From contig WJMH01000012.1 of NCBI GenBank assembly GCA_014728045.1, positions 63,239-127,238 on the forward strand: a stretch of DNA of 64,000 nt, written 5' to 3'. This DNA is from Candidatus Omnitrophota bacterium. GTDB lineage: Bacteria; Omnitrophota; Gorgyraeia; Tantalellales; Tantalellaceae. The notes under the pieces were generated by a model. It did no database searches, had not been told where the DNA came from, and saw only the letters and a list, made by a program, of their open reading frames with translations. Shown here one piece after another: positions 3,427 through 20,206 of this stretch. Numbering within the stretch: the stretch's first letter is position 1; each line of letters opens with the position of its first letter. The translations under genes were made by a program, and so were the position numbers.

Positions 3427-3447
3427 AACAAGAAGGAGGATGTTAAC

Positions 3448-4038
3448 ATGAAGAAAGTAGCATTAACTCTAGCGGTATTAGGCCTTCTGTTCGCTGGTAC
3501 GGCCGTACATGCACAGGAACAAACTGTTCTTTTCAGTTTTGAGGATGGTTTGCAGGGATGGGAGATCCCGGACTGGGCCTACGAGAAACCTGATCACGTC
3601 CAGAAGGAGATAAGCCCTTCTGCTGATTTCGCCAGCGAAGGCGCTCAGAGCCTGAAGATGGACGTGGAATACCCGGGCGGAAGATGGACAGGCGGGATAG
3701 TCGAGATAATGCAGTATTTCGACTGGACCGATTACAGCAAAATAGCCTGTGACATATATCTTCCCAAGGATGCTCCTCTGGGGCTGAGGGCTAAGATGAT
3801 ACTGACCGTGGGGGACAGCTGGAAATGGGTGGAGATGAGCCGTTCTTTCGGTCTCGTTCCCGGCCAATGGGTCACCCTTACGGCGGATATAACCCCGGGA
3901 AGCATTGACTGGAGAAGGATCCAGGTCGATGAATCTTTCCGCGCTGATATAAGAAAGATAGATATAAGGGTTGAGTCCAATAACAGGCCGGCTTATACCG
4001 GTCCGATCTATATCGATAACGTTCGCGTTATCAAGTGA
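3448..4038 (+). CDS. secreted beta-sandwich (CBM-like) protein, paralog A
   Basis: Signal peptide 'MKKVALTLAVLGLLFAGTAVHA'. About 45% identity by eye to the product of 4197-4913 over 'YLPKDAPLGL...DNVRV'. Confidence 0.4.
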   Translation: MKKVALTLAVLGLLFAGTAVHAQEQTVLFSFEDGLQGWEIPDWAYEKPDHVQKEISPSADFASEGAQSLKMDVEYPGGRWTGGIVEIMQYFDWTDYSKIACDIYLPKDAPLGLRAKMILTVGDSWKWVEMSRSFGLVPGQWVTLTADITPGSIDWRRIQVDESFRADIRKIDIRVESNNRPAYTGPIYIDNVRVIK

Positions 4039-4080
4039 TCCGGTTGACCTGTCATTATTGGGAAAGACCATGAAGCAAGA

Positions 4081-4123
4081 GGGCAGAGACCGGTGGATAG
4101 ACCGGTCTCTGCCTGCTGTTTTG
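4081..4123 (+). terminator. hairpin, possible intrinsic terminator or attenuator between the two CBM-like paralogs
   Basis: Perfect 13-bp stem GGGCAGAGACCGG/CCGGTCTCTGCC with a 6-nt loop, followed by TGCTGTTTTG. Confidence 0.4.
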
Positions 4124-4196
4124 ATGTGTTAACAGCTCCTTTTTGCAAGGCTATTAATAAAACAGGCAAGGTAGGGAAAAGGAAAGGAAAAAGAGA

Positions 4197-4913
4197 ATGA
4201 GTAAAATTCGTTTTAATGTTCCGGTTCTACTGGTGGCAACACTTCTTGTATTTACCGTTATGATAGCCGGTTGCGGCCCCCAGAAAGAGGAAGGTCCCGC
4301 CACCGGAGGTAAGACGATAAAAATATCGAAGAAAGCCGCCTCCCAGACCCAGATGCCGGAAAGGCCGACGCCTTCCACGGCGCCTATTACCGAGACAAGG
4401 ATCTACTACGATTTCGAAAGCGACCTTAACGGATGGGAAGTACCCATGTGGGCGCAGGGCAAGAGGGATCATATCGCCAAGAGCGCGGAGGTTTCCACGG
4501 AAGTGGCCTCCCACGGCAAAGGGAGCATGAAGATAGAGGCGGATTTCCCGGGAGGCATGTGGTCGGCGGCCCTGGTCGAGATACAGCAGTATCTTGACAT
4601 GAGCAATTACCGGGTGATAAGGGCAGATGTCTATCTTCCCCCGGATGCGCCGATGGGGCTTAACGCCAAGCTCATAATCACGGTGGGCGAGACCTGGAAG
4701 TTCGTCGAAATGAGCCGCAGTTATCCCTTGATACCGGGCGAATGGGTGACGATAAACGCCAGCATAGAACCAGGAAGCTACGACTGGAAGAGAGTGGTCC
4801 CGGACGAGAAATTCGCCGAGGATGTACGCAAAATAGCCGTAAGGATAGAATCTAACAAGAAACCTAAGTACACCGGTTCTGTATTCGTGGATAATATCAG
4901 GGTTGGCAGATAG
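4197..4913 (+). CDS. secreted or membrane-anchored beta-sandwich (CBM-like) protein, paralog B
   Basis: N-terminal hydrophobic anchor with lipobox-like 'IAGCG', a Pro/Thr-rich linker, and a C-terminal domain paralogous to 3448-4038. Confidence 0.4.
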   Translation: MSKIRFNVPVLLVATLLVFTVMIAGCGPQKEEGPATGGKTIKISKKAASQTQMPERPTPSTAPITETRIYYDFESDLNGWEVPMWAQGKRDHIAKSAEVSTEVASHGKGSMKIEADFPGGMWSAALVEIQQYLDMSNYRVIRADVYLPPDAPMGLNAKLIITVGETWKFVEMSRSYPLIPGEWVTINASIEPGSYDWKRVVPDEKFAEDVRKIAVRIESNKKPKYTGSVFVDNIRVGR

Positions 4914-5110
4914 TATCCGCTGATAGATATATCCATTTTGGTCGGTTTGCTGTTACGGAACGGACTTGTTAGCCCGGGGAGAGGTCCTGTAAGGATCTTT
5001 CGTGATCTGTGATATATTCTTTTTTTTGCCCGGTTAGTTTCTACATTTATAATCCGGGCGGAAGAAGTTTAAAAAACGTTTGAAAAATCATTCTACGAAA
5101 GGAAAAGATC

Positions 5111-6244
5111 ATGCCTAAGAAAAAATCCCAAGAGAAACCGAAAGAGAAAGGACAGGCCAAAACAGCGGCAAAAAAATCTTCCAAAAACCTTTTTCTGAAG
5201 GTGTTGATACCCGTTGTCGCGGTCGTAGTGGTTGCCGCGGCCGCATTCACACTTATCAAATTTGTGCCGCAGGGCACCGGAGTAAGGGCGGAGTTCCAGA
5301 AGGGGATAGGATACGTAACCTGGTCGCAGGGAGGCTACCTTACCGAAAATTCTGACGAGTCCCTAGCAAAGGCCAGCCAGATCGGGACCGAGTGGGTCAG
5401 CATTCTGGTCACCTGGTACCAGACGACGCCCTGGTCAGGTGATATACAGAGGACCTCCAAGACCCCTTCCGACGAAGCGGTGGTGCATGCCATACGCAAG
5501 GCACACGAGCTGGGTCTGAAGGTATGCCTCAAGATGCACCTGGATCTGTTGGATACCTCCGACGGCAGCTGGAGAGGCGAGATAGGCAGCATGAGGGAAT
5601 CCGAATGGGACGATTGGTTCAGGAAATATACCGAATATATCATGTATTACGCAAAGATGGCCGAAGAAGAGGATGTCGAGATGCTTTGCGTGGGGACGGA
5701 GCTGTCGACCACCGCCACAGCCAAGGGATATATGTGGGAAGACCTGATCAGGACCGTGAGGGGTTCTTTCTCGGGACTATTGGTATACGCGGCGCACTGG
5801 GACCGGTATCTTGATATCCGGTTCTGGCATATGCTCGACTTTGTCGGGATAAACGCGTATTTCCCGCTTACCGAAGAGATGGCCCCCAGTTACGATGAAT
5901 TGCGCGAGGGTTGGAGCAAATGGGTCGCGGAGATCGAGGATTTCCAGGAAAGAGTGGGTAAACCGATCATTTTCCCGGAGGCCGGTTGTAATTCCGCCGA
6001 CGGCGCGGCTATACGACCATGGGAACACATCCCAAGGAGCGAAGTAAATCTTCAGCTGCAGGCGGATTATTACAGGGCCCTCCTGGAGGAATTCTGGGAC
6101 AAGGAATGGTTCTACGGCCTGTACTGGTGGTACTGGGGCACTAACGCTAGCATGGGCGGTAAATATAACCGGGGTTTTACGCCGCAGAACAAGCCGGCCG
6201 AAGAGGTCATACAGAAATGGTACTCCAAACCGGTTTCGAAGTAA
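5111..6244 (+). CDS. membrane-anchored TIM-barrel glycoside hydrolase (clan GH-A-like), paralog of the 1804-3426 catalytic domain
   Basis: Lys-rich N-terminus plus one TM helix. 'VGTELSTT' and 'IIFPEAGCNS' align to 'VGTELEAT' and 'ILTEIGYPS' in the paralog. Shared 'NAYFPL' motif. Confidence 0.5.
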   Translation: MPKKKSQEKPKEKGQAKTAAKKSSKNLFLKVLIPVVAVVVVAAAAFTLIKFVPQGTGVRAEFQKGIGYVTWSQGGYLTENSDESLAKASQIGTEWVSILVTWYQTTPWSGDIQRTSKTPSDEAVVHAIRKAHELGLKVCLKMHLDLLDTSDGSWRGEIGSMRESEWDDWFRKYTEYIMYYAKMAEEEDVEMLCVGTELSTTATAKGYMWEDLIRTVRGSFSGLLVYAAHWDRYLDIRFWHMLDFVGINAYFPLTEEMAPSYDELREGWSKWVAEIEDFQERVGKPIIFPEAGCNSADGAAIRPWEHIPRSEVNLQLQADYYRALLEEFWDKEWFYGLYWWYWGTNASMGGKYNRGFTPQNKPAEEVIQKWYSKPVSK

Positions 6245-6287
6245 ACTATCCAGCGTGTCGCTTGAAAATATGTGAAGGAGTATTCAC

Positions 6288-7547
6288 ATGAGGGAGTTCA
6301 TAGCAAAGGAGAATAGGCTCTCCGAGAAGGAGAGAAGGAACCTGAGCATTCTCGATGCCATACGCAGAGGAGGGGAGATATCCAGGGCGGAGATATCCAA
6401 AGTGACCGATCTGAATATCGTTACCGTTTCAAATTATGTCAGCAAGTACATAAAGAACAAGATCGTCTTTGAAACGGGTCTTGATATCTCCACCGGCGGA
6501 AGAAGGCCGGAGCTTCTCAAGCTGAACGGAGATTACGCCTACAGTATAGGCATAGACCTTGGTTCGCCTCATCTTACCATTGACGCGGCGGTCGTGGGGG
6601 TCCTGATGGATATGACCGGCAAGGTGATCGCCCAGGAGAAGGTCCCCAAGGAAAAGGAATCTTTCGAAAAGCTCACCGAGAGAGTGCTCGGCATGGTCGA
6701 CGACCTCATACGCAAATCAGGTGTTTCCCCTTCGGACATAAAGGGTATAGGCGTAGGCATATGGGGTGTTATCGACCGTTACCGGGGGATGGTGCGTTAC
6801 GCGGTCGAGAACGAACAGATCGTAAGTTATACTAACCTCCTGAGCCAGCTGGAGGCCAGGTTTGACGCCCCGACGCTTATCGAGCATGATGCCACATTGG
6901 CAGCTTTCGGGGAAAGATGGTCGGGTATTGGTGCCGGGAGTTCTGCATCCAACCTGATTTTTCTGTGTTCCGATTCAAGCTGCGGGCTCGTCATAAAAGG
7001 GGATCTCTACTACGGAGCTACGAAGAGCGCAGGGGAGCTCAATCTGAATCCTCCTTATCCTGGGGAGGAATCAAGCCCGGACAAATGCTGGGCGAGTTAT
7101 GATTACGGATGCTGTCTGCGTTCCAGGGGGCTGGACCTTGGTATACCCGACCGGATCAGGAGTTATCTCGGGGAGCATCCCGGGGAAGGCAAGGCAATAA
7201 TGGAGGCCTGCGGCGGGGATGCTGAAAGAATAGATTTCAGGACCGCAATAGAGGCTGCCGAAAAAGGGGACGACCTTGCAAGACTGACCCTTGAGGATGC
7301 AGGGGACTATCTCGGCACCAAAATAGCTTTTTTGATAAACCTTTTTAACCCCGAGGTGGTCGTCGTCGGCAGGGGCATTGAGAAAGCGGGAGATATATTC
7401 TTCTCTTCGGTGCGCAGGGCCGTTAGAAAGTGGGGTTACGAAGAATCGGTAAAGGTCGTCAAGATACTACCGACCAGCCTGGGCGATAACGTTGTCAGTG
7501 TCGGCGCCGGAGCCCTGGTCATACAGAATCTATTCGCTGAAGTGTAA
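6288..7547 (+). CDS. ROK-family transcriptional regulator (NagC/XylR/Mlc-like)
   Basis: N-terminal winged HTH 'ISRAEISKVTDLNIVTVSNYV' followed by a sugar-kinase-like ROK fold with Gly-rich and Cys-containing segments. Confidence 0.7.
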   Translation: MREFIAKENRLSEKERRNLSILDAIRRGGEISRAEISKVTDLNIVTVSNYVSKYIKNKIVFETGLDISTGGRRPELLKLNGDYAYSIGIDLGSPHLTIDAAVVGVLMDMTGKVIAQEKVPKEKESFEKLTERVLGMVDDLIRKSGVSPSDIKGIGVGIWGVIDRYRGMVRYAVENEQIVSYTNLLSQLEARFDAPTLIEHDATLAAFGERWSGIGAGSSASNLIFLCSDSSCGLVIKGDLYYGATKSAGELNLNPPYPGEESSPDKCWASYDYGCCLRSRGLDLGIPDRIRSYLGEHPGEGKAIMEACGGDAERIDFRTAIEAAEKGDDLARLTLEDAGDYLGTKIAFLINLFNPEVVVVGRGIEKAGDIFFSSVRRAVRKWGYEESVKVVKILPTSLGDNVVSVGAGALVIQNLFAEV

Positions 7548-7563
7548 AGAGAAGGAGAGGAAC

Positions 7564-8799
7564 GTGTTGCTAAAAAAGATAATAACATCATTAATTCTGT
7601 CCGTTTTTGTTTTTTCATTATCCGGTTGTGGCGCAGGCGCGGAGAAAAAGGACCAGATAGTCATGTGGCTTGTAGGGTCCGAAGGCCAGGCCCAGACCAT
7701 AACCCAGCTCAGCAAGAAGTTCACCGAAAAGACCGGTGTCGAGGTCCTGTGCCAGGCCATATCCTGGGGCGATGCCCACAGCAAGTACCTTACTTCCATA
7801 GCCGGCGAAGTTACTCCCGACATAGGGACCATGGGGCTGACATGGGGCATGGAGTTCGGCGAACTGGGTGCCATGGTCAATTTGCGTGAAACTTACCCGG
7901 AAGACGTCGAAGAGCTTGAGACTAAGATATTCCCCAGCATCCTTGAATCCACCAGAGTGGGCGATAAAGTATACGGCATACCTTTTGACCTGTCGGTGCA
8001 GATCATGTACTACAGGAAAGATATGATACCGGAGCCACCCAGGACCTGGGATGATCTTCTCCAGACGATAAAGGGGCTGAAGTCAAAAGAGAAGGGAATG
8101 GTGTATGACTGGGGATCGCTTGAGTGGATAGGTTATTCTCCCTTCCTCTGGCAGTCGGGAGGAAGTTACTACAATGATGATTTCACTCAGGTGACGCTGG
8201 ATACCCCCGAGGCCGCGGAGGCCATGGGTTATTTTGCCAGTTTATATAAGGCGGGTATGCCGAAAACACAGGTTCCGCTCGAGCAGGGAATGAGGACGGG
8301 GGATTATCCTCTGGCGATATCGGGTAACTGGAAGATCGTGAGCCTTACCGTGGGTGCTCCCGAGCTGGAAGGCAAATGGGGCATAGCCATGCTTCCCAAG
8401 GGACCCACCGGCAAGCGCACCGCTTTCATCGGCGGAAGGATACTCGGTATATTCTCAAGATCCAAAATGAAGGACGAGGCATGGGAATTCATCAAGTTCC
8501 TTTTCAAGCCCGAGAACCAGATCAGGATATATGAGGATTCACTCGAGACAGAAGATTCGTATCTTCCTCCCAACATGGATACCTGGAGCGACCTGCCGAT
8601 GGACCAGGAATTTAAGCGCGTTCTGGTGAGCCAGGCCAAGGACGCCAAGGGACCACCGCCTGTTCTGGCCTGGGATTCAAGCACGAGATTCATTAACCAC
8701 GCCATACAGATGGTGGTATTAAAGGGCGCAGATCCGGCCGAACAGCTCGAGAAAGCTACTGTAAATATGCAGAAAGAACTTGAACAGAGAGGCAGATGA
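7564..8799 (+). CDS. ABC transporter extracellular solute-binding lipoprotein (family 1, sugar-type)
   Basis: GTG start after RBS GGAGAGG (the ORF track starts at 7492 inside the ROK gene). Lipobox 'LSGCGAG'. Typical SBP length and composition. Confidence 0.75.
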   Translation: MLLKKIITSLILSVFVFSLSGCGAGAEKKDQIVMWLVGSEGQAQTITQLSKKFTEKTGVEVLCQAISWGDAHSKYLTSIAGEVTPDIGTMGLTWGMEFGELGAMVNLRETYPEDVEELETKIFPSILESTRVGDKVYGIPFDLSVQIMYYRKDMIPEPPRTWDDLLQTIKGLKSKEKGMVYDWGSLEWIGYSPFLWQSGGSYYNDDFTQVTLDTPEAAEAMGYFASLYKAGMPKTQVPLEQGMRTGDYPLAISGNWKIVSLTVGAPELEGKWGIAMLPKGPTGKRTAFIGGRILGIFSRSKMKDEAWEFIKFLFKPENQIRIYEDSLETEDSYLPPNMDTWSDLPMDQEFKRVLVSQAKDAKGPPPVLAWDSSTRFINHAIQMVVLKGADPAEQLEKATVNMQKELEQRGR

Positions 8800-8988: not shown

Positions 8989-11715
8989 TTGGAAAGGCAG
9001 GATATGCACGGTGTAAGAGGAAGATCATGGTTCAGGATCGTAAGTCTTGTACTTGTACTCACGTTAATATTTTTTGATATAGCACAGGCGAGCCAGATAA
9101 ATATCCCCGAAGCAGCAGAAAAACTTTCCGCGGAACTCCCTTTTCAGACCGAGATAATGTCAAATGAAAAGGAAGCTGTCCGTAGATCGCTGTTCGCGGA
9201 TATGAAACTGCTCGCATCAGCGCAGAATATCGCCAAATATCTTCTTGAGGACAGGCTGCCACTGGAACATCTCGAAGCGGTAATATCACGTGAAACGGGC
9301 CAGATCATAGGTGGGATAGATCTATCCAAGGTCAATTTTTCCCCAGATAAGAAGGTCGTCATAATCCCGTGCGTCTGTTCGGGACATAAATGCCTAATAC
9401 AGGTGGCACTTAAGGATGAACTTCCCCGGGATGGGCTCTCTGGTCAGAAATGGGTAGCATCTGCCAAGTATTTGATCTATGTTTCTTTCGGGGAAAAAGA
9501 AGAGTCAAAAAAGACAAAAAGCGAAAAGACCCCCCCGGCAAAGACCCCCCCTGATAATACCGGTTCCAGGAAGGGAAAACATAATCTAACCGCCCGTAAT
9601 TGCTACAGGGCGATGTACTGCTTAAGGCCGGTCACGATCGCTGTGACCGTGGTATTCGGATGGATCTATCTGGTCCACGGCATGACCGACCCCATGAAGT
9701 TGCTTTCATGGGCGATCATCAACGTTCTGGCCTTTACGACCGCCTATTACTGGTACATGGGAAGGGATATACGTTCTTCCATGATAGAAGTGGGGGTTCC
9801 GGAAGACAAGGCTCTTGATGAGCCGGTCTCCAACACCGAAGGGTTTCTGCATCATGCTTTCAACCATCTCAGTAAAATGGAACAGAGCAGCGTGCTCAAG
9901 CACGAGGTCCTGAAGTGGCATCCTCTCGGGATGGTCTTCATGACGCCTATTCCGAGCTTGCTTCTGGCCCCTTATTTCTGGTTCGCGATCGACAGGTTCT
10001 ATAATATCTCTTCGATGTACGCGGGGATAGACCATAATAATCCCGAGAGCATTTACGAGTACGCCCAGCTGGGTTACCCCAAAATAAGGGCTTTCGCTAT
10101 CGAGAGGTCCTGGCAGATAGAAGATATAGACAAAATGGGCAGGCTTTTCGTTCTAGCCTACGGCAGGGACAGTGAACTGGCCGAGCCGGCTATTCATAAG
10201 CTGTTCAATTCCGGTAATGTCGAGAAGATAAGGGAATACTCCAAACAGTGTATGATGGCCTATGCCGACAAGGTCTTTGATGTATGCCATGTAAGGGCCA
10301 TACTCGTCAGGGACTGCATGCAGGGTGAAATCAAAGAAAAACTGGCGGAGAAGCTGGCCGAGCATGTGACCACCTGGGAGGATTTTAAGAGGGTCGTGGC
10401 CCTTATAGATCACCATTATGAGCGGAAAGCTCCTTGTTTCACGAAGCTGCACGCGATGGCAGAAACACCGGGTGAGATAGAAAAACTTTTTCTCGGTGAA
10501 AGGATCTTCTCTAAATTCGGGAAAATACGACGCCACAAGGAAGTCCATGTAGATCCCAAATATGAAAGAGATGCTTCATATAAACTGGCACGCGCGGTTG
10601 CTGAAGTCTACGGCATGAGTGAACTTACCGGCGGCCAGCTGGAAGATGTACTTATTGCCGTCAAGGACGTTGTTTCGTTCCACCAGGCCAGGAAACCCGC
10701 GTATACATTCGTAGAGGAACTCGCCGAAAACCCGAACGACCTTAAAAGGAGCATACTGGCCCAGGGAGGGCTTATCCCCAGCCGGAAGAGCGAAGCGGAA
10801 CAGAAGCCCATTCCCGGGGAAGAAGAGGTGGAGCTTCCGGCCAACAACAACCGGGAAAAACTTATCAATGCCTGTAACGACATGGTCGCGATCCTTGCCT
10901 TGAGAAGCGATATAACCAGAGAATTCATGGGGAACGAAACTAATACGGACATTGTTTTCACGGCCGAGGCGCTGCTGGCTGATCTTGAGAGGATACGAGA
11001 GACGGGGGAGGCCCCGATCCTTTTTACGGAAGCTGTCATGGAGGTCGAGAGGACCTTGAGGGAGAATCTGCGGGAATTTGAGTCAGCGGGTCTTGTCTCA
11101 TCCATCATAACGCTCGCAAGAAAGGCCAGGAGAGAGGACAGAAACCTTATTATCGGCGTTGAGACCGCCTGGATACCGGGTTCGGAGCGGGCCACAATGC
11201 AGCACATGGCGATAAATCCCCTTATCACCGATATCAAATCCCTGGGATCGAAACTTAGGTCCATCGGCCTTGATAACGTTATCATAGTGCATGATAAAAG
11301 GGATTATCTTGCCCACCAAGTCATATGGCAGACCACAAAGGATGGCCCCAATAGCGATTATTCCAATGTGGTCATACTTGCTTCTCAGGATACCATAAAC
11401 TCTAAGGCTTTCGATCCTTTACGCAGCACCCGGACGGAGCAAAAGGCTTTTCTTGCCGGTGTCGACCACAGCGAGCTTGACGCTTTCACCGAGAAGAGTA
11501 CTGAAGATTACACGCAGATAAGGATACGCTTGGTGCAGATGCTGGCGCTCGCTCTTGAGTTGGCATCCGGGCAGAGTGCGCCGGAGCTCCCGATCATACG
11601 CGAATATAACAAGACGCTCAGGACTGTCATATTCCTTCCCGGGGCGGAGCCGATGGATTTCAGGGAATTGCAGAGGCTTTACAGAGCGCAGCAGAAAGCC
11701 CTTGAGGCGGCGTAA
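8989..11715 (+). CDS. large orphan membrane protein (908 aa), function unknown
   Basis: Signal or anchor helix, then about 190 aa of extracytoplasmic region with a 'KTPPAKTPP' repeat, then 3-4 TM helices, then roughly 560 aa of helical cytoplasmic region. No catalytic motif recognised. Preceded by a 130-bp AT-rich region. Confidence 0.55.
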   Translation: MERQDMHGVRGRSWFRIVSLVLVLTLIFFDIAQASQINIPEAAEKLSAELPFQTEIMSNEKEAVRRSLFADMKLLASAQNIAKYLLEDRLPLEHLEAVISRETGQIIGGIDLSKVNFSPDKKVVIIPCVCSGHKCLIQVALKDELPRDGLSGQKWVASAKYLIYVSFGEKEESKKTKSEKTPPAKTPPDNTGSRKGKHNLTARNCYRAMYCLRPVTIAVTVVFGWIYLVHGMTDPMKLLSWAIINVLAFTTAYYWYMGRDIRSSMIEVGVPEDKALDEPVSNTEGFLHHAFNHLSKMEQSSVLKHEVLKWHPLGMVFMTPIPSLLLAPYFWFAIDRFYNISSMYAGIDHNNPESIYEYAQLGYPKIRAFAIERSWQIEDIDKMGRLFVLAYGRDSELAEPAIHKLFNSGNVEKIREYSKQCMMAYADKVFDVCHVRAILVRDCMQGEIKEKLAEKLAEHVTTWEDFKRVVALIDHHYERKAPCFTKLHAMAETPGEIEKLFLGERIFSKFGKIRRHKEVHVDPKYERDASYKLARAVAEVYGMSELTGGQLEDVLIAVKDVVSFHQARKPAYTFVEELAENPNDLKRSILAQGGLIPSRKSEAEQKPIPGEEEVELPANNNREKLINACNDMVAILALRSDITREFMGNETNTDIVFTAEALLADLERIRETGEAPILFTEAVMEVERTLRENLREFESAGLVSSIITLARKARREDRNLIIGVETAWIPGSERATMQHMAINPLITDIKSLGSKLRSIGLDNVIIVHDKRDYLAHQVIWQTTKDGPNSDYSNVVILASQDTINSKAFDPLRSTRTEQKAFLAGVDHSELDAFTEKSTEDYTQIRIRLVQMLALALELASGQSAPELPIIREYNKTLRTVIFLPGAEPMDFRELQRLYRAQQKALEAA

Positions 11716-11740
11716 GCCCGAGCGGGATGTTTGAGGATAA

Positions 11741-11777
11741 TAAAAAAAGGAGGCTTGTACAAGCCTCCTTTTTTTAT
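11741..11777. terminator. bidirectional intrinsic terminator between convergent genes
   Basis: A7-GGAGGCTTGTACAAGCCTCC-T8. Confidence 0.8.
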
Positions 11778-11793
11778 TATATAAGCGGGTATT

Positions 11794-12696
11794 TTAGAAA
11801 AGTATCTGCACCTTCGCGATGTATTCCCACGCTGCGCTAACGCGCCTGAACCTTTCGCTGGTTCCGTCGCCGCGTCCCCATGCGGTCTGTCCAAGCTGAA
11901 GCTCGAGGTTAAGACTGGACTGAGCTCCTTTTTTAACACTGGAGAAGCCTTTTCCCAGGAGGTTTATAATGGGGCCGGCGCGCCAGGTAATGGTGTCTTT
12001 ACGCACTCCCGTTCCCTGATGGGAAAGCCTCACATCCAGCTCGCCTTTCAACATGAGCCAGTCAAAGGGGGAGATGCCGCCTTCGAGGAACATGGGAAAA
12101 TAATTCGCGAAATCTGCATTGACCCCCGTATCGATCTGCCAGAAATAACCGAACTCACCGGACACGTAAGCAGGTTTTTTGAACACTGTGAAGGATTTTC
12201 CCACAAGGCCCCGCAGTTCCACGCCGTTACCGTATTCAAACAGGTCGGGCTGTTGGACCACATCGGGGTTTCCCGGATGGATGTAGAACTTGAGCTGTCC
12301 GGCAGCCACGACGGGTTTATCCATGAATTTGTATTTTATGCCGGGTTGTATCTGCTTGAAGCCTTCGTGCTTGGCTTTTTGGCTATTGAACTGCGCGGTG
12401 CTGAAATCGTTCTTCCAGTGGCTCCAGGTATAGGGGATATTGAGCAGGATGTTCAGGTTATCGTTGAAGCCGAACTCAAATTTCTGCTCGAGGTCGTATA
12501 TCTCCGATATCCCGCCGTGGTCCCAACGGCTCCTGTCACCGTTCTCATCGAACGCTCTTTTGGAGACAAAATAACGGAAAAACGTTTCTGTCCAGAGCTT
12601 GTTCTTTTTTAGTGTCCATGGTCCCGCGTGGGAGACCTCAGGCATCAGAAGAGCGACAAAGAGTGCCGCAGTAATGAAGAAAGCCGTTCTTTTCAT
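11794..12696 (-). CDS. outer-membrane beta-barrel protein (putative porin or channel)
   Basis: Signal peptide 'MKRTAFFITAALFVALLMPEVSHA'. Alternating amphipathic strands. C-terminal '...KVQILF' ends in Phe, typical of OMP beta-barrels. Confidence 0.5.
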   Translation of the reverse strand: MKRTAFFITAALFVALLMPEVSHAGPWTLKKNKLWTETFFRYFVSKRAFDENGDRSRWDHGGISEIYDLEQKFEFGFNDNLNILLNIPYTWSHWKNDFSTAQFNSQKAKHEGFKQIQPGIKYKFMDKPVVAAGQLKFYIHPGNPDVVQQPDLFEYGNGVELRGLVGKSFTVFKKPAYVSGEFGYFWQIDTGVNADFANYFPMFLEGGISPFDWLMLKGELDVRLSHQGTGVRKDTITWRAGPIINLLGKGFSSVKKGAQSSLNLELQLGQTAWGRGDGTSERFRRVSAAWEYIAKVQILF

Positions 12697-12725
12697 TGAA
12701 ATACCCCCTTGATTTATTCCCGAAA

Positions 12726-12992
12726 TTATCTGCTTAATCCGAAAAGAGCCGCGAACCAGGCCATAATGCTTGCCTGGCCTTTTTGTTCATCAAGTATGGA
12801 TTTAACGTCATTGGGCGAGAGGATGCCTTTTTCGGTCATGATGGCGCCGATTTCCTTGTGCTGCTGGTGCTTTTGTTCGTATTCCTTTTGTATGCGCAGC
12901 GCCTCTTTTACCTCATCCTCTGATGCAAGACCGCGTCCCACAGCGATTTCGCCGAATTTCTTGGTCTTCTTTTTCCTTAAAAATTCAAACAT
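12726..12992 (-). CDS. small protein with two tandem MshEN/GspE-N-like (putative c-di-GMP-binding) motifs and a C-terminal hydrophobic tail
   Basis: 'KFGEIAVGRGLASEDEVKEALRIQ' and 'EIGAIMTEKGILSPNDVKSILDEQ' both fit the 24-residue RLGxxLxxxGxIxxxxLxxALxxQ pattern. Lies upstream of the OMP in the same minus-strand operon. Confidence 0.45.
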   Translation of the reverse strand: MFEFLRKKKTKKFGEIAVGRGLASEDEVKEALRIQKEYEQKHQQHKEIGAIMTEKGILSPNDVKSILDEQKGQASIMAWFAALFGLSR

Positions 12993-13163
12993 ACATGCCT
13001 TTTTATAATAGTAATAAAAAATATATTATTTGCCAAATAGTATATATGTTTTAAAGCCTTAAGTCAAGAAAAGCCTGCTCAAGCGCCTTTTGAAAAGAAG
13101 GGTTGACTTAAACGCATATTATAATATATTATTCTATGACTATAGGCTGGAAGAGGTGATCAA

Positions 13164-14003
13164 ATGAGTTACATAAAGACGGGTTTATTGCTGGTCGTAA
13201 TGACCTTCATTCTGATGTGGGTCGGAAGTCTCGTGGCAGGCCCCAGAGGCGTTATTATAGCTTTTATTGTAGCCATGGTGCTCAACGGGGTCAGTTACTG
13301 GTACAGTGACAAGATAGTGCTGAAGATGTACAACGCCAGGCCGTTATCATCCCGGGAGAACGCCGATATCTATTCGGTGGTGGAAGAGCTCAGCTCCAGG
13401 GCAGATATACCCGCACCCAGGGTATATATAACGGACGTTGCCGTTCCCAACGCTTTCGCGACCGGAAGAGACCCCGACAATGCCGCTTTATGCCTTACCA
13501 GGGGGCTTGTGGAATTACTGGACAAGGAGGAGCTTAAGGGCGTCATCTCCCACGAGCTTTCGCATATCAAACACCGAGATACCCTTATCATGACGGTCAC
13601 CGCGGCCATGGCGAGCGCGATAATGATGGCTGTTTACATGGCCAGATGGGCGGCCATTCTCGGCGGGTTTTCCAGGGAGAGGAATGACTCGGGTAACATC
13701 ATAGGATTATTGGCCGTAAGCATATTTGCCCCGATAGCCGCCCTTATAGTCCAGCTGGCCATATCCCGTTCGCGGGAATACGCCGCTGATACAAGGGGAG
13801 CCGAGATAGCCGGTTCCCCCGAGGGGCTCGCCAGGGCCCTGGAACAGATGGCCCGGGGCAATGAACGCACCAGATTCGACGCGGCGCCCCAGACTCAACA
13901 CCTGTTCATCGTCAAGCCGTCCGCGAATAATTTCGTTGCCAACCTGTTCAGCACGCATCCGCCTGTGGCCGAACGGGTCAAAAGACTCAGGAGCATGGCC
14001 TAA
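13164..14003 (+). CDS. htpX: HtpX-like M48 zinc metalloprotease
   Basis: Two N-terminal TM helices. Zincin motif 'HELSHIKHRD'. Two further TM helices. Length typical of HtpX. Confidence 0.85.
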   Translation: MSYIKTGLLLVVMTFILMWVGSLVAGPRGVIIAFIVAMVLNGVSYWYSDKIVLKMYNARPLSSRENADIYSVVEELSSRADIPAPRVYITDVAVPNAFATGRDPDNAALCLTRGLVELLDKEELKGVISHELSHIKHRDTLIMTVTAAMASAIMMAVYMARWAAILGGFSRERNDSGNIIGLLAVSIFAPIAALIVQLAISRSREYAADTRGAEIAGSPEGLARALEQMARGNERTRFDAAPQTQHLFIVKPSANNFVANLFSTHPPVAERVKRLRSMA

Positions 14004-15607
14004 TGCGTGGATCCAAATTTATTCTGATATTGATAGCTGTTATGCTGTTTCTGTATTTTTTCGGGCTGGGGGATATGCCCCTTACCGATCCGGATGAGAC
14101 TTTTTACGCCCAGACGGCAAAGGAGATGCTCGAAGCTGATGAGTGGGTCACTCCCATGATATTCGGCAAGCCGCAGTTCGAAAAACCCGTGCTTTACTAT
14201 CTTCTTATAGTTCTGAGTTATATGGTTTTCGGGGTTGGTGAGTTCGCAGCGAGATTCCCTTCGGCGGTTTTCGGTATTCTGGGCGTTCTGGGGGTTTATT
14301 TTTTCGGAAGGCTCCTTTTTTCGCCGCTCTGCGGGTTCCTTTCGGGGATGGTCATGGCGACCTGCGTACAGTATCTCGTCCTCGCCAGAGGTTGCGTAAC
14401 GGACATGGTGCTCTTGGTCTTTATCCTGTACACGCTTTTATTCTTTCTGATGGGATGGATGGGTAAGGGCAGGGGATATTTCTATCTCGCTTCGGTAGCT
14501 GCGGCCCTGGCGGTACTCACGAAGGGTCCGATCGGTCTATTTCTCCCCGGTCTCACGGTATTATTATTCATCCTTTTGACCAGGCAGTGGAAAAGGTTCC
14601 CGGAGATACCGCTTTTGCGGTGCATTCTCCTGCTTCTGCTGGTAAGTTTGCCCTGGTATATCGCGGTTTACCGTATGCACGGGTCGGCCTTTGTTGATGA
14701 ATTCTTCGGTTTTCATAACGTTACGCGTTTTCTGGTTCCGGAGCACAGGATAGGCACGTCGCCGTACTTCTACATACCGGTCATCCTGGGAGGGTTCTTC
14801 CCCTGGAGCACTTTTCTTCTTTTCGGTGCGTGGAACATGTGGAGACACCCCCATCCAGGATCAGCGGACTCGCGGGCAGGGAATTACAGGCTGTTCCTCT
14901 TATTATGGTTTCTTGTGGTGTTCCTTTTCTTCTCTTCATCCAGCACGAAACTCGTCACTTACATTTTTCCGCTTTTTCCGGTACTAGCGTTAGTTGCCGG
15001 GAGGTTTTGGGAGAGGTTCATCACTAGCTCGGACGAGGATGAACGAACGTCTTTTTTCATGAAGATATCCTTCTGGATCCTCGTTGGATCATCCCCGGTC
15101 GCGGCTGCCGGCGCCGTTTTTCTGGTTAGATATGAATACGCGACCACCTCAGCAGTCCAGGGCACGATAATGGCCTCCGTTCTTTATCTTCTGGCCATTA
15201 TCGTTTCGGCACTTTTCTTTCTCAAAAGGCGCAGAATGGCCTCTTTCGGCGCCATCGCTTCTTCGGTATTGGTCTGCGCTTTACCCGTGGTCTGGTTCAT
15301 TCTCCCGGTCGTGGGTGTACATGAATCCAGCAAGGAACTTTCTCTTAAGGTCAGGGAGCTCGCCTCTTCCGATGAAGCGGTGGGGGGCGAATGTGATCAC
15401 CGCCGTGGGATAGCCTTCTACTCGGGCAGGACCGATATGACGGATATACATCCTCATCAGGCCCTCAGGGATTTTTTCTCCAGGAAGGAGAGAGTGTGGG
15501 GTATAATACAGCAGAAGCATTACCGTAACCTGAAGGCAGAGATGCCCGGAAAGGTGTCCGAGCCGGTGGCCAGTTCGGGAGAATATGTTCTTATAACGAA
15601 TGAATAG
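14003..15607 (+). CDS. ArnT/PMT-family (GT39/GT83) polyprenyl-phosphate-sugar-dependent glycosyltransferase
   Basis: Multi-TM protein with N-terminal 'DPDETFYAQTAKEM' loop motif characteristic of ArnT/PMT enzymes. Start overlaps the htpX stop (TAATG). Confidence 0.75.
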   Translation: MRGSKFILILIAVMLFLYFFGLGDMPLTDPDETFYAQTAKEMLEADEWVTPMIFGKPQFEKPVLYYLLIVLSYMVFGVGEFAARFPSAVFGILGVLGVYFFGRLLFSPLCGFLSGMVMATCVQYLVLARGCVTDMVLLVFILYTLLFFLMGWMGKGRGYFYLASVAAALAVLTKGPIGLFLPGLTVLLFILLTRQWKRFPEIPLLRCILLLLLVSLPWYIAVYRMHGSAFVDEFFGFHNVTRFLVPEHRIGTSPYFYIPVILGGFFPWSTFLLFGAWNMWRHPHPGSADSRAGNYRLFLLLWFLVVFLFFSSSSTKLVTYIFPLFPVLALVAGRFWERFITSSDEDERTSFFMKISFWILVGSSPVAAAGAVFLVRYEYATTSAVQGTIMASVLYLLAIIVSALFFLKRRRMASFGAIASSVLVCALPVVWFILPVVGVHESSKELSLKVRELASSDEAVGGECDHRRGIAFYSGRTDMTDIHPHQALRDFFSRKERVWGIIQQKHYRNLKAEMPGKVSEPVASSGEYVLITNE

Positions 15608-15616
15608 GTAGAATAT

Positions 15617-16321
15617 ATGAACGATAGCCCCAGCGTATCCTTTGTCTTACCCATGTACAATGAGAGCGCCAATATCACCGCGTCCATACGCAAGATCAAG
15701 TCCATCGCCCCGGAGATGACCCCGGATCACGAGATAATCATAGCCGATGACGCATCCACGGATGGAAGCGCCGATATCGTTGAAAGTATCTCGCGGAAGG
15801 ACTCAAGCGTAAAGCTTATCAGGCTGCCGGAGAATACGATGTTCGGAGGTGCGTTCGCCGCGGGTTTCAAAGCAGCCAGCAAGGACGTTATCATGTACAT
15901 GGACGCGGATATGCCCGTCGGGGAGGAAGATATAAAAAGGTCCTTTCCCCTGATAAAGAATGCCCACATAGTTACTGGCTACAGCAAGGTAAAAAAAGGG
16001 GACACCCTCAAGAGGAAGATAATATCTGTCGGGTACAATCTTCTGGTCAGATCGCTTTTTCGTCTGGATATACGTGATATCAATTCCGGCTATAAGATAG
16101 TCAGGAGGGAACTGGTGGAGGATATGCAATTCATCTCCCGCAGCCCTTTCGTGGACGTTGAGCTTTTCCTGCACGCCAAAAGAAAAGGCGCCAGAGTGGA
16201 ACAGTATCCTCTGGTCTTTACCTCCCGTCCGGGAGGTAAGTCCTACATCGCCAGGATCCCCGTAATATGGGCGACCTTCTGCGATATGATCAAGGTGAGG
16301 GCCCTTACCCTGAAAGGTTGA
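15617..16321 (+). CDS. GT2 polyprenyl-phosphate glycosyltransferase (ArnC/DPM1-like)
   Basis: 'SFVLPMYNESANI', 'IIADDASTDGS' and 'YMDADM' (DXD) motifs of GT2 family. Confidence 0.8.
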   Translation: MNDSPSVSFVLPMYNESANITASIRKIKSIAPEMTPDHEIIIADDASTDGSADIVESISRKDSSVKLIRLPENTMFGGAFAAGFKAASKDVIMYMDADMPVGEEDIKRSFPLIKNAHIVTGYSKVKKGDTLKRKIISVGYNLLVRSLFRLDIRDINSGYKIVRRELVEDMQFISRSPFVDVELFLHAKRKGARVEQYPLVFTSRPGGKSYIARIPVIWATFCDMIKVRALTLKG

Positions 16322-16325
16322 ACGC

Positions 16326-17180
16326 ATGAAAGCGCTTATCATAAACGCCGATGATGTCGGCCTCTCAAAAGAGATAAATGAAGCAGCAAGAAAGTGTTAT
16401 CTTGAAAAAGTGATAACGGGGGTGAGCTTACTTGCCTGCGGGGAGAGCTTCAGTGATGCCGCAAGCATGCTGCATGGGGTGGGCAGGACTAACGTGGGCG
16501 CTCATCTTGTTCTTACCGGGGACTTTAAACCCTGCACCAGTGATCTTTCCCGTATAAGGACGCTCGTCCCCGGAGGGCGGTTCCCTGCCGGCTATAAGGC
16601 GTTCGCCGCGAGGTATTTGCTGGGAGCGGTTTCCGCTGACGAAGTGTATGAAGAGACCACCGCGCAGGTAAAAAAAATAAAAGAGGCGGGGCTTCAGGTT
16701 ACGCATATAGACAGCCACGAGCATGTTCACATGTTCCCGGAGATTCTCCGGACAGTTATCGCGGTGGCGCTCGATAACGGTATCCCTTATGTAAGGCTTC
16801 CCAGGGAGAGTTCGAAAGTGGTTATCACCGCCTTTTCACCAAAGGACCTTTTGCGCCACGCGGGGCTCAAGGTCTTCGCCTCCCATGCGCGAAGAGCGAT
16901 GAACGCTTTAGAGGTCTATCATAACGATTATTTCTGGGGACATTTCCATGCGGGCAGGCTCGATAACGGTATCCTCAGTTTTATCGTAAATAACCTCGGC
17001 GAGGGGATCAATGAACTTGCTGTCCATCCGGGCGTTTTAACCCCGGAACTGGAGGAAAGGTCCTCCTGGCACCGTAATTCCCAGAAAGAGCTCACTGCCC
17101 TGATAGGGGGAAGTTGGAGAAGGTCCCTGGCAGACAGCGGGGTGCGGACGATATCCCATCTTGAAACGATGCATATCTAG
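16326..17180 (+). CDS. YdjC/ChbG/HpnK-family carbohydrate deacetylase
   Basis: 'MKALIINADDVGLS...' N-terminus and 'HIDSHEHVH' metal-binding block typical of YdjC-like deacetylases. Confidence 0.75.
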   Translation: MKALIINADDVGLSKEINEAARKCYLEKVITGVSLLACGESFSDAASMLHGVGRTNVGAHLVLTGDFKPCTSDLSRIRTLVPGGRFPAGYKAFAARYLLGAVSADEVYEETTAQVKKIKEAGLQVTHIDSHEHVHMFPEILRTVIAVALDNGIPYVRLPRESSKVVITAFSPKDLLRHAGLKVFASHARRAMNALEVYHNDYFWGHFHAGRLDNGILSFIVNNLGEGINELAVHPGVLTPELEERSSWHRNSQKELTALIGGSWRRSLADSGVRTISHLETMHI

Positions 17181-18710: not shown

Positions 18711-20206
18711 TAAATCATTATAACGATGTATGCATAATTACGCATTTTACGTAATCCTGGGGATGCAGGTTAGGACTTGAGGGGTGAACAAAAATGGAGT
18801 GTATTCCAAATTAGTTGATCTATTTTGGAAATAATCGAGATTAGATATGCTGGATCGCTTTTTATGCGGAAAAAACAAGTAAATCTTGCATTTTTATAAG
18901 TTTTAAGTATACTTAAAATATATATAAAAAATAAAGGAGTTTTAAGTATGATTAAAGAATATATTAAAAGAAAACACTATCTTGATAAGGTTTCTTCTTT
19001 TATTGATAAAGATATCATTAAGGTGATCGTCGGACAGCGCCGAGTAGGGAAAAGTTACTTGTTATACCAGATAATGGATATCATCAGGGATAAAGGTGTG
19101 AAAGCCGGAAATATAATTTATATAAATAAAGAACTACATGATTTCGATGATATTAATACTTATAAAGACCTTTTGGAGTACATAGAGGGAAGGATAAAAA
19201 ATAAAAGAAAACATTATGTTTTTCTTGATGAGGTTCAGGAAATAGAAAAATTTGAAAAAGCTTTGGAAAGTATGCAGGCCTCAGGCAAGTATGATATTTA
19301 CTGCACAGGCAGTAACGCGAATCTACTTTCCGGTGAATTGGCTACTCACCTTAGCGGGCGATATGTCGAAATTAAAGTTTATGGTCTTTCATATCCTGAA
19401 TTCCTTAATTTTCATAAATTGAATAATGATCAGGAATCTCTTTTAAAGTACATCAGGTACGGTGGCCTTCCGTTCTTGATCAATCTGGAGTTCAAGGATG
19501 AGATCATCTATGAATACCTTAAGAATATTTACAGTACGATCCTTTTCAAGGACATCGTGAAAAGACATTCGATACGGAATGTAGCATTCTTAGAACGCCT
19601 GGTTGAATATCTGGCCGATAATACGGGTTCTTTGGTTTCGGCGAAAAGCATAAGTGATTTTTTAAAATCCCAGAAGATAAAACTTTCCCCCAATATTGTA
19701 TTGGATTACTTATCCTTCTTATCGTCTGCTTTTTTTGTGTTTAAAGTCCAAAGGTCTGATGTAGCAGGCAAAAAGATATTTGAGATCGGCGAAAAATATT
19801 ATTTCGAAGATCTTGGGTTAAGACATTCTGTAGTCGGATATAAACAGGTAGATATCAATAAAGTCCTGGAAAATCTTGTTTTTCTTCATCTAAAGATCTC
19901 CGGATACAAGATAACTGTGGGAAAGTTAAAAGATAAAGAAATCGATTTTGTATGCACTAGAGGCGGGGAAAAGTTATATGTACAGGTAGCATATCTAATA
20001 GATAGCCAGAAGATCATAGACAGGGAATTCGGAAATCTTTTAAAAATAGAAGATAATTATCCGAAACTTGTAGTTTCAATGGACGAGGTGGGGGGAGATA
20101 AATACAAAGGAATTGAGCAGGTTAATATAAGAAAGTTCTTAGGTAGTTTACTTTAGAAAACAGAAAAAACGTGGTGAAATGCCCCAGTTGAGCACGAAAA
20201 TAGGAA
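18710..20206 (+). mobile_element. AT-rich islet inserted at the tmRNA 3' end, bounded by 66-bp direct repeats; no integrase
   Basis: Duplication of the tmRNA terminus and lower GC than the flanks. Single cargo gene. Confidence 0.5.
18948..20156 (+). CDS. AAA-family ATPase with C-terminal DUF4143 (COG1373-type)
   Basis: Walker A 'GQRRVGKSYLL'. Walker B 'VFLDEVQ'. C-terminal block '...KEIDFVCTRGGEKLYVQVAY...' resembling DUF4143, possibly a PD-(D/E)xK-like fold. Confidence 0.7.
   Translation: MIKEYIKRKHYLDKVSSFIDKDIIKVIVGQRRVGKSYLLYQIMDIIRDKGVKAGNIIYINKELHDFDDINTYKDLLEYIEGRIKNKRKHYVFLDEVQEIEKFEKALESMQASGKYDIYCTGSNANLLSGELATHLSGRYVEIKVYGLSYPEFLNFHKLNNDQESLLKYIRYGGLPFLINLEFKDEIIYEYLKNIYSTILFKDIVKRHSIRNVAFLERLVEYLADNTGSLVSAKSISDFLKSQKIKLSPNIVLDYLSFLSSAFFVFKVQRSDVAGKKIFEIGEKYYFEDLGLRHSVVGYKQVDINKVLENLVFLHLKISGYKITVGKLKDKEIDFVCTRGGEKLYVQVAYLIDSQKIIDREFGNLLKIEDNYPKLVVSMDEVGGDKYKGIEQVNIRKFLGSLL

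Follow-up and report, generated by a model that had tools for sequence, protein, structure and literature searches.

What is an 88-amino-acid protein with two c-di-GMP-type binding motifs, and no enzyme attached to them, doing beside a gene for an outer-membrane protein (OMP)? The question is raised by a locus of a Candidatus Omnitrophota bacterium, which we analyzed within a 64,000-nucleotide stretch of contig WJMH01000012.1 (assembly GCA_014728045.1, positions 63,239 to 127,238; hereafter the window, with positions counted from its first letter). On the minus strand, an open reading frame (ORF) for the small protein, the mini-gene (12726–12992), lies directly upstream of the OMP gene (11794–12696), as had been described in an earlier note made from the letters of this DNA. 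The exact 88-amino-acid protein is present in NCBI as a hypothetical protein from a Candidatus Omnitrophica metagenome-assembled genome. We propose that the mini-protein is a minimal, free-standing cytoplasmic receptor of the MshEN_N type for cyclic di-GMP (c-di-GMP), that it is co-expressed with a 12-stranded outer-membrane channel, and that it acts via an inner-membrane partner; we hold this proposal, taken as a whole, with slightly better than even confidence.

The mini-protein begins with a basic stretch (MFEFLRKKKTKK, net charge +5) reminiscent of MshE's basic patch; two c-di-GMP motifs and a hydrophobic tail follow. For their census of MshEN domains, Wang et al. (2016) used a relaxed pattern, [RKPN]hGxxhhxx[GAS]hhxxxxhxxxhxx[QNKRYWST] (PMC5013675); the stricter form is RLGxx(L/V/I)(L/V/I)xxG(L/V/I)(L/V/I)xxxxLxxxLxxQ, in two tandem 24-residue copies. 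Motif I (residues K12–Q35, positions 12888–12959, minus strand; KFGEIAVGRGLASEDEVKEALRIQ) satisfied the relaxed pattern at 24/24 positions and was the sole exact match to it in the window when all six frames were scanned for ORFs of at least 60 codons. Motif II (residues E47–Q70, positions 12783–12854, minus strand; EIGAIMTEKGILSPNDVKSILDEQ) aligned with motif II of PilF GSPII-C and of PilB, and is identical to motif I at 8 of 24 positions. A charged spacer of 11 residues (K36–K46) stands between the two motifs. The earlier note had described two consecutive 24-residue MshEN motifs; the motifs themselves are borne out by the profile matches given below, but they are not strictly consecutive.

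We observed a match between the mini-protein and the curated NCBIfam model NF053729.1 with an E-value of 1.2e-10 and a score of 41 bits (cut-off 38), in which residues 12–70 covered profile positions 1–53 of 53. All 19 members of a divergent alignment of two subfamilies matched the same model (best E-value 4.6e-14). When a family profile was compared with the PDB, it matched T. thermophilus PilF GSPII-C (residues 301–360, E = 1.8e-10), the N-terminus of the type IV pilus ATPase PilB (E = 0.004), and V. cholerae MshE (5htl, E = 0.016), with the hG, G, and L..Q columns of the motifs in register. At sub-threshold level, 18 of the 19 family members also matched the MshEN_N part of EpsG, and seven matched the MshEN region of NfrB weakly. 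The profile matches uphold the idea of a free-standing module, and on these sequence grounds the mini-protein is a free-standing module of the MshEN_N type.

The hidden Markov model search that the earlier note had proposed, with Pfam PF05157 (T2SSE_N), gave no match at E ≤ 1; only sub-threshold hits to FumaraseC_C and DUF4388 were seen. We take PF05157 to span both the MshEN_N and the T2SSE_N1 (MshEN_C) halves of the domain. The mini-protein ends 18 residues past motif II and has no T2SSE_N1 subdomain. Because this half is absent while the 53-residue NCBIfam model matches, PF05157 is not a valid test for the mini-protein, and we interpret the miss as a gap in model coverage rather than as a refutation.

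Compared with solved relatives, the mini-protein is both familiar and reduced. MshE MshEN_N and T. thermophilus PilF GSPII-B and GSPII-C (PDB 5htl, 6f8l, 8pdk) share with it two tandem 24-residue helix-turn-helix motifs, the hG...G...h...h..Q signature, the basic patch ahead of the motifs, and significant profile homology. However, the mini-protein has neither T2SSE_N1 nor an ATPase, its spacer is 11 residues long, its motif II starts with E, a hydrophobic tail has been added, and the total length is only 88 amino acids. MshEN_N-only architectures were listed by Wang et al. (2016) in their Supplementary Table 4: (MshEN_N)2 in cce_1044, MshEN_N-AAA_31 in EpsG, REC-MshEN_N in Bd2402, MshEN_N-M23, and others (PMC5013675). 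These proteins likewise carry the module without T2SSE_N1, but in them it is duplicated or fused to an output domain, whereas here a single module bears a 15-residue tail and is linked in an operon-like arrangement to an OMP gene. Neither a single MshEN_N module with a hydrophobic tail nor an association with an OMP appears in that architecture table, and our literature search on stand-alone MshEN, small MshEN_N proteins, and c-di-GMP in Omnitrophota found no description of the 88-amino-acid family.

We found 178 homologues of the mini-protein, with a typical length of about 85–95 amino acids. Nearly all of those listed are 72–103 amino acids long, and the ones with a named source are from Omnitrophota. 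At the amino-acid level they keep a shared start (MF.F), a shared stop, and a family-specific tail at 40%–100% identity. An exhaustive profile search recovered 2,909 proteins with related modules, many of them multi-repeat.

We then considered whether the module has kept the means to bind its ligand. In MshE, two Gln, Leu triads contributed by both motifs, and the backbone amides of the motif Gly and its successor contact c-di-GMP; the Gln pair touches its ribose and phosphate, not the core of the protein, and isolated VcMshEN_N (residues 1–62) binds c-di-GMP with a dissociation constant (KD) of 0.35 μM (PMC5013675). Among 124 homologues spanning 40%–100% identity, the equivalent motif I residues F13 and G14 were each conserved in 122, L32 in 119, and Q35 in 123; in motif II, I48 was conserved in 116, L67 in 118, and G49 and Q70 in all 124. 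V28 and V63 were V, I, or L in 122–123 of the 124. The substitutions known to inactivate XpsE (G to V or L; L to R, H, or C; Q to V; PMC5013675) were not found in the mini-protein. In our model, the helix-turn-helix motifs at residues 12–35 and 47–70 would supply the backbone-NH, Gln, and hydrophobic stacking contacts, as they do in MshE and PilF, where the two motifs hold one c-di-GMP between them. Judged by these residues, the mini-protein is likely to bind c-di-GMP.

The earlier note had pointed to a short hydrophobic C-terminus, and this is indeed what we see. The hydrophobic and aromatic tail (residues A74–R88, positions 12729–12773, minus strand; ASIMAWFAALFGLSR) comes after Q70 and a short linker, and its core, ASIMAWFAALFGL, has a mean Kyte-Doolittle value of 1.9 over 13 residues. 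The hydropathy reached 1.9–2.15 over 11–13 residues but only 0.59 over a 19-residue window. Members of the close family all keep A78, W79, F80, A82, and F84, and across the 124 homologues W79 is kept in 111 and F84 in 117. Tails elsewhere in the family include FWSWVNVFFMLKRGV and similar sequences; that of a distant subfamily differs (...FILKGLIYSIFHSxQPK) but is aromatic too. AlphaFold2 (AF2) gave the tail a predicted local distance difference test score (pLDDT) of about 41–51 across the final two ten-residue blocks. The mini-protein carries neither a signal peptide nor any other export signal. We reasoned that, without a signal peptide and with a tail too short for a transmembrane helix, the mini-protein is cytoplasmic. 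We rejected the tail as a transmembrane anchor, a PEP-CTERM-like sorting signal, or an OMP β-signal, since its hydrophobic run is too short for a bilayer, its pattern does not alternate, and no N-terminal signal peptide accompanies it. Our preferred reading is an in-plane membrane anchor or a partner-docking peptide.

The 300-amino-acid OMP starts with a signal peptide (residues 1–24, positions 12625–12696, minus strand) that runs up to ...SHA before GPWTL, and it ends in F, with F or W at this position across the family. AF2 predicted a confident 12-stranded barrel (pLDDT 81, predicted template-modeling score [pTM] 0.78). The sequence itself had no Pfam match at E ≤ 1, no NCBIfam match, and no PDB sequence match; PF13557 was not found at E ≤ 10 among 21 OMP homologues, none of which matched any other Pfam or NCBIfam model or a PDB sequence, and the OMP family profile did not match any PDB sequence. 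The OMP is thus a sequence family unmatched in Pfam, NCBIfam, and PDB, within the known structural class of COG4313, FapF, and KdgM. Like the COG4313 channels (Pput2725, PDB 4rl8; SphA; TcpY), it is a 12-stranded monomeric barrel; unlike them, it shows only 12% identity, does not match PF13557, and has sugar-related gene neighbors in place of hydrocarbon or sphingosine genes. FapF has an N-terminal coiled-coil and a plug domain, whereas the OMP has only ∼10 mature residues before strand 1 and no fap genes beside it. It also differs from the oligosaccharide porins KdgM, NanC, and GalP, being about 70–90 residues longer than the KdgM family and without sequence relationship to them.

The barrel strands carry conserved alternating E, K, and D residues, and no invariant His or Ser was found in the mature OMP among the aligned homologues, from which we infer a channel rather than a lipid hydrolase. 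A lipid A hydrolase of the LpxR, PagL, or OMPLA type was disfavored on the same absence of an invariant His or Ser and on a Z-score to LpxR of only 14.8. The AGPWTL sequence at the mature N-terminus, ∼10 residues ahead of strand 1, is invariant. The lumen of Pput2725 is closed off by ∼14 residues at its N-terminus (PMC4493636); by analogy, AGPWTL may block the barrel lumen here, in a region (residues 21–26) where AF2 gave a pLDDT below 50.

Several signals fit joint expression of the two genes. The gap between the mini-gene and the OMP gene is 29 nt, and direct reading of it revealed a Shine-Dalgarno-like AAGGGGG (12704–12710, minus strand) 7 nt before the OMP ATG. Upstream of the mini-gene, a consensus scan found a promoter-like site, TTGACT-17-TATACT (13039–13067, minus strand), with 10/12 matches; this call is a sigma-70-like consensus match only. 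With this gap, ribosome-binding site, and promoter-like site, co-transcription of the pair, which the earlier note had assumed, is plausible. That note had also placed a bidirectional terminator downstream, and we found the hairpin to be real: at about 11741–11777, between the stop of a convergent 908-amino-acid ORF (11715) and the OMP stop (11794), the RNA folds with −25.4 kcal/mol (z = −7.96; 0/200 shuffles equally stable), with an A-run upstream and a U-run (T-run in the DNA) downstream, so that it can serve as an intrinsic terminator on both strands and be common to both genes. An Rfam scan of 11500–13400 for a c-di-GMP riboswitch or other leader returned only sub-threshold terminator-like noise.

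Next, we asked whether the pair recurs in other genomes, a survey that the earlier note had suggested, and found that it does. When a single genome was scanned for each GTDB species, 22 loci of the family were recovered (L019–L040), mostly labeled Candidatus Omnitrophota, several labeled "uncultured Planctomycetia," and one Ca. Makaraimicrobium. In 21 of the 22 the mini-gene was followed directly by the OMP gene; in the 22nd the contig ended first. Metagenome contigs (L001–L012, L099, L101) showed the same arrangement. In a distant clade (type B), in which the mini-protein is 40% and the barrel 31% identical, the order is reversed (SBP→OMP→mini→HtpX→..., where SBP is a solute-binding protein), with all genes co-directional at 4–24 nt gaps, those from SBP to HtpX being 10–24 nt. 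Across loci the pair stayed adjacent and co-directional with gaps of 10–75 nt, while the flanks changed: on the mini-gene side we found HtpX/PMT_2/GT2/YdjC, PMT_2 alone, AAA_14 with a 4,505-amino-acid protein (L005), or HtpX/agmatinase/ArgDC (L040), and on the OMP side SBP/ROK/GH113, sometimes after an inserted 908-amino-acid ORF, GH130, or group II intron. That adjacency outlasts both flank turnover and gene-order reversal is good evidence that the mini-gene is functionally coupled to the barrel gene.

A number of observations weigh against our reading. Motif II departs from the relaxed pattern at position 1, where E stands in place of a basic residue, P, or N, and at position 7, where T occupies a core hydrophobic site. 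The first departure seems tolerable because proven binders carry K, L, and P at position 1: PilF GSPII-B has K and L at its two position 1 sites, yet its KD is 6 nM, and GSPII-C has P there with an affinity about that of MshEN (KD 500 nM). The 11-residue spacer compares with 5 residues in canonical MshEN and 7 in PilF-C and PilB; since spacers of 7–11 residues recur in other MshEN_N-only proteins (P0141, P0188, P0142), we regard the long spacer as a subclass trait that lowers canonical membership without excluding it. The AF2 monomer (pLDDT 71, pTM 0.49) did not form a compact four-helix bundle, and residues 25–54 were modeled as one continuous helix; should this helix truly be unbroken, motifs I and II could come together only in an antiparallel dimer. 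A Foldseek search of this model, which is non-compact and of modest confidence, gave no significant or MshEN-like match in the PDB. A regular-expression scan of the 64-kb window for GGDEF, EAL, and HD-GYP returned no convincing match; a ComFB-CheR protein in Omnitrophota has been noted by one paper. At the level of the locus, HtpX adjoins the mini-gene in no more than about half of the cases, and since a single phylum supplies every locus, some of the synteny may reflect common descent instead of selection. Furthermore, one contig (L013) has an intact OMP gene but only a remnant of the mini-gene upstream (4540–4626; MGLFGRKKTKKFDESTGTSRQIK...*), and Ca. Makaraimicrobium thalassicum (L039, 5376–5555) encodes a 59-amino-acid in-frame deletion variant in which the front half of motif I runs straight into the rear half of motif II and the tail is retained. 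The pairing is therefore not absolutely obligatory.

These points feed the main rival to our proposal, namely that the MshEN_N scaffold was kept while c-di-GMP binding was lost, leaving a small protein or membrane adaptor like the degenerate N-terminus of XpsE or GspE. The two departures in motif II, a spacer of twice the canonical length, the non-compact AF2 model, and the missing Pfam T2SSE_N match are all in line with such a loss, and Wang et al. report that many MshEN domains have lost binding (PMC5013675). However, both Gly, both Gln, and the stacking hydrophobics are 92%–100% conserved at 40% overall identity, and since it is the ligand that the Gln side chains touch, maintenance of the fold alone hardly explains this conservation; the XpsE-type inactivating substitutions are absent, and the protein passes the cut-off of a curated c-di-GMP-motif model. 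We therefore consider loss of binding unlikely. A functionless ORF, left over from a PilB or GspE N-terminus or arisen by chance, would fit a length of only 88 amino acids, a weak Shine-Dalgarno sequence, the "hypothetical" annotation, and the likeness to an ATPase N-terminus. Yet the OMP gene comes next downstream, with no ATPase remnant, and the conservation of start, stop, and tail among the 178 homologues at 40%–100% identity leads us to reject this explanation, which we give virtually no chance.

Two further explanations concern the link between the mini-protein and the barrel. According to the earlier note, the mini-protein could be a c-di-GMP sensor by which the co-encoded barrel is gated directly. 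The tight gene pair, with its 29-nt gap, shared promoter and terminator, and neighborhood in nearly every complete locus, speaks for some link of this kind, but c-di-GMP is a cytoplasmic messenger, and the mini-protein lacks an export signal and has a hydrophobic stretch of 11–13 residues that is too short for even one membrane. A Sec signal peptide and an OMP-type C-terminal F place the barrel on the far side of both inner membrane and periplasm, so direct gating is topologically implausible and the proposal, in our judgment, highly improbable. Alternatively, the two genes could be neighbors by descent in one Omnitrophota lineage, with the mini-protein serving a role unrelated to the barrel, such as HtpX regulation or c-di-GMP buffering. 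The restriction to one phylum fits this view, as do the conserved PMT_2/GT2/YdjC and SBP/ROK/GH113 flanks, the HtpX neighbor that the mini-gene keeps in three arrangements, and the L013 OMP gene with its truncated mini-gene. On the other hand, the pair stays co-directional at gaps of 10–75 nt despite changed flanks (L005, L040, inserts), and its adjacency survives reversal of gene order at 31%–40% identity, and we think inheritance alone a rather improbable account, though less so than direct gating.

How, then, might a cytoplasmic receptor be coupled to an outer-membrane channel? In the mechanism that we favor, the conserved 13-residue aromatic and hydrophobic tail would replace the usual T2SSE_N1 subdomain and ATPase. 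Binding of c-di-GMP would lock the helices into a bundle, perhaps across an antiparallel dimer, which we considered because the 11-residue spacer was modeled as a continuous helix, and would alter exposure of the tail. The tail would in turn dock either to the inner membrane itself or to one of its proteins, so that the c-di-GMP level would be coupled to envelope transport or remodeling that uses the co-transcribed channel. Coupling would have to go through an inner-membrane partner, for which we rank as candidates HtpX, then the transporter served by the SBP, and then the PMT_2 and GT2 glycosyl-transfer enzymes. Cytoplasmic c-di-GMP receptors encoded with an outer-membrane barrel have precedents among the trans-envelope polysaccharide systems under c-di-GMP control, NfrB-NfrA, BcsA-BcsC, PelD-PelB, and PgaCD-PgaA, of which NfrB uses an MshEN domain; unlike those systems, the pair described here shows neither fusion or complex of the receptor with a processive synthase nor, in its operon, a large outer-membrane porin bearing tetratricopeptide repeats.

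The gene for the first candidate, an HtpX-type M48 inner-membrane protease (13164–14003, plus strand; PF01435, E = 3.4e-37), is divergent from the mini-gene, and a promoter-like plus-strand site for htpX (13103–13130) lies back to back with that of the mini-gene. HtpX is the most recurrent inner-membrane neighbor of the mini-gene: it adjoins it in 11 of the 22 species loci, in L040, and in all type B loci, and is co-directional with it in the type B loci L014–L016 and L100. PMT_2 (14003–15607, plus strand) and an ArnC-like GT2 of 234 amino acids (15617–16321, plus strand) follow. On the other side, a gene for a sugar-type solute-binding lipoprotein (SBP_bac_1/8 by Pfam; 7492–8799, plus strand) is given here as context only, as a recurrent neighbor of the OMP gene; an SBP gene adjoins the OMP gene, or is separated from it only by a variable insert, in most type A and all type B loci. 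The presence of SBP and ROK genes beside the barrel gene in both Omnitrophota clades fits oligosaccharide uptake by a KdgM-like 12-stranded channel.

We also noted several features of the surrounding genes. HtpX, PMT_2 (ArnT-like), GT2, and a YdjC-family deacetylase form one co-directional cluster in the window (13164–17180, plus strand), which is divergent from the mini-gene and kept in most related loci. This cluster resembles the Bordetella Lgm and enterobacterial Arn systems, in which an amino sugar is transferred onto lipid A via an undecaprenyl-phosphate carrier. A mannan-utilization cluster (1804–8799, plus strand) comprises a GH113 protein with an F5/8 type C domain, two Mann_GBD/CBM27 proteins, a second GH113, a 419-amino-acid ROK protein, and the SBP_bac_1/8 lipoprotein (LSGC lipobox); next to it there are no genes for an ABC permease or ATPase. 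The earlier note had the pair converge on the 908-amino-acid ORF (8989–11715, plus strand) across their common terminator, and so it does, but the ORF is no part of the unit, and we rejected it as a component because it is present in some loci only. It had no Pfam or NCBIfam match, and homologues of it fill the corresponding slot in L008, L019, L021, and L033 alone, being much longer in L021 and L033; the slot holds GH130 in L010 and a group II intron reverse transcriptase in L099. The slot between the barrel and SBP genes behaves as a variable insertion site.

Gene order varied in other ways across the loci. In L014 (5079–9759) and L100, the genes for the barrel, the mini-protein, HtpX, a 343-amino-acid soluble protein, agmatinase, and pyruvoyl arginine decarboxylase all run in one direction, separated by 4–24 nt, whereas in L040 (1224–4787) HtpX-agmatinase-ArgDC is divergent from mini→OMP. 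The 343-amino-acid protein encoded after HtpX in type B loci was rejected as a general partner: it is soluble, belongs to no Pfam family, and is absent from type A loci. The positional order SBP-OMP-mini-HtpX is the same in the window and in the distant clade, with the pair transcribed oppositely, and so does not reflect a simple block inversion. In L005 (1–5850), a gene for the 4,505-amino-acid giant protein and one for an AAA_14/DUF4143 ATPase precede the pair; the window, too, has an AAA_14/DUF4143 gene, at 18948–20156, 6 kb off. Six loci (L021, L023, L030, L032, L034, L037) are titled "uncultured Planctomycetia bacterium" despite an Omnitrophota-type locus, and judging by locus content these labels are probably wrong.

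Among the wider set of MshEN_N-like proteins, P0141 and P0188 are (MshEN_N)2 proteins of 137–140 amino acids that share the 11-residue spacer with the mini-protein; their genes lie beside a metallo-β-lactamase-fold gene and a resistance-nodulation-division pump (L017). Many long proteins (P0142, P0143–P0158, and others) contain 3–9 tandem MshEN_N-like modules, often with a zinc-ribbon, and Pfam returned for them only spurious FumaraseC_C or DUF4388. We looked among the long profile-matching proteins for Rosetta-stone fusions, but these multi-repeat MshEN_N and zinc-ribbon proteins revealed no partner domain. Pfam appears to have no model for the MshEN_N-only module. In practice, Pfam T2SSE_N misses MshEN_N-only proteins, for which weak, spurious FumaraseC_C and DUF4388 hits appear in its place, and NCBIfam NF053729 detects them.

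Only three c-di-GMP receptor modules are widespread; MshEN, one of them, is so far known mainly attached to ATPases, glycosyltransferases, and signaling domains. What is new here is the minimal architecture and its conserved genomic association; the domain itself is already known and has a curated NCBIfam model, and we claim no new principle. If our proposal is correct, a 53-residue binding unit with a 13-residue tail would define the minimal output for an MshEN-type receptor, and the 88-amino-acid protein would be a tractable object for binding and structural work. A bolder version, which as a whole we also regard as unlikely, is an undescribed effector module specific to Omnitrophota, in which the receptor, possibly an antiparallel dimer with two inter-chain sites, docks by its tail on an inner-membrane protein (at best HtpX or a sugar importer) and controls the biogenesis, turnover, or use of the new-family channel; no smaller modular c-di-GMP receptor whose output is peptide-sized would then be known. 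Overall, the pairing with a family-less barrel suggests an envelope function linked to c-di-GMP for two genes now annotated as "hypothetical," and, if our proposal is borne out, Omnitrophota would gain a candidate receptor for c-di-GMP; this uncultured phylum consists of ultra-small bacteria, some possibly host-dependent, in which signaling is essentially unstudied.

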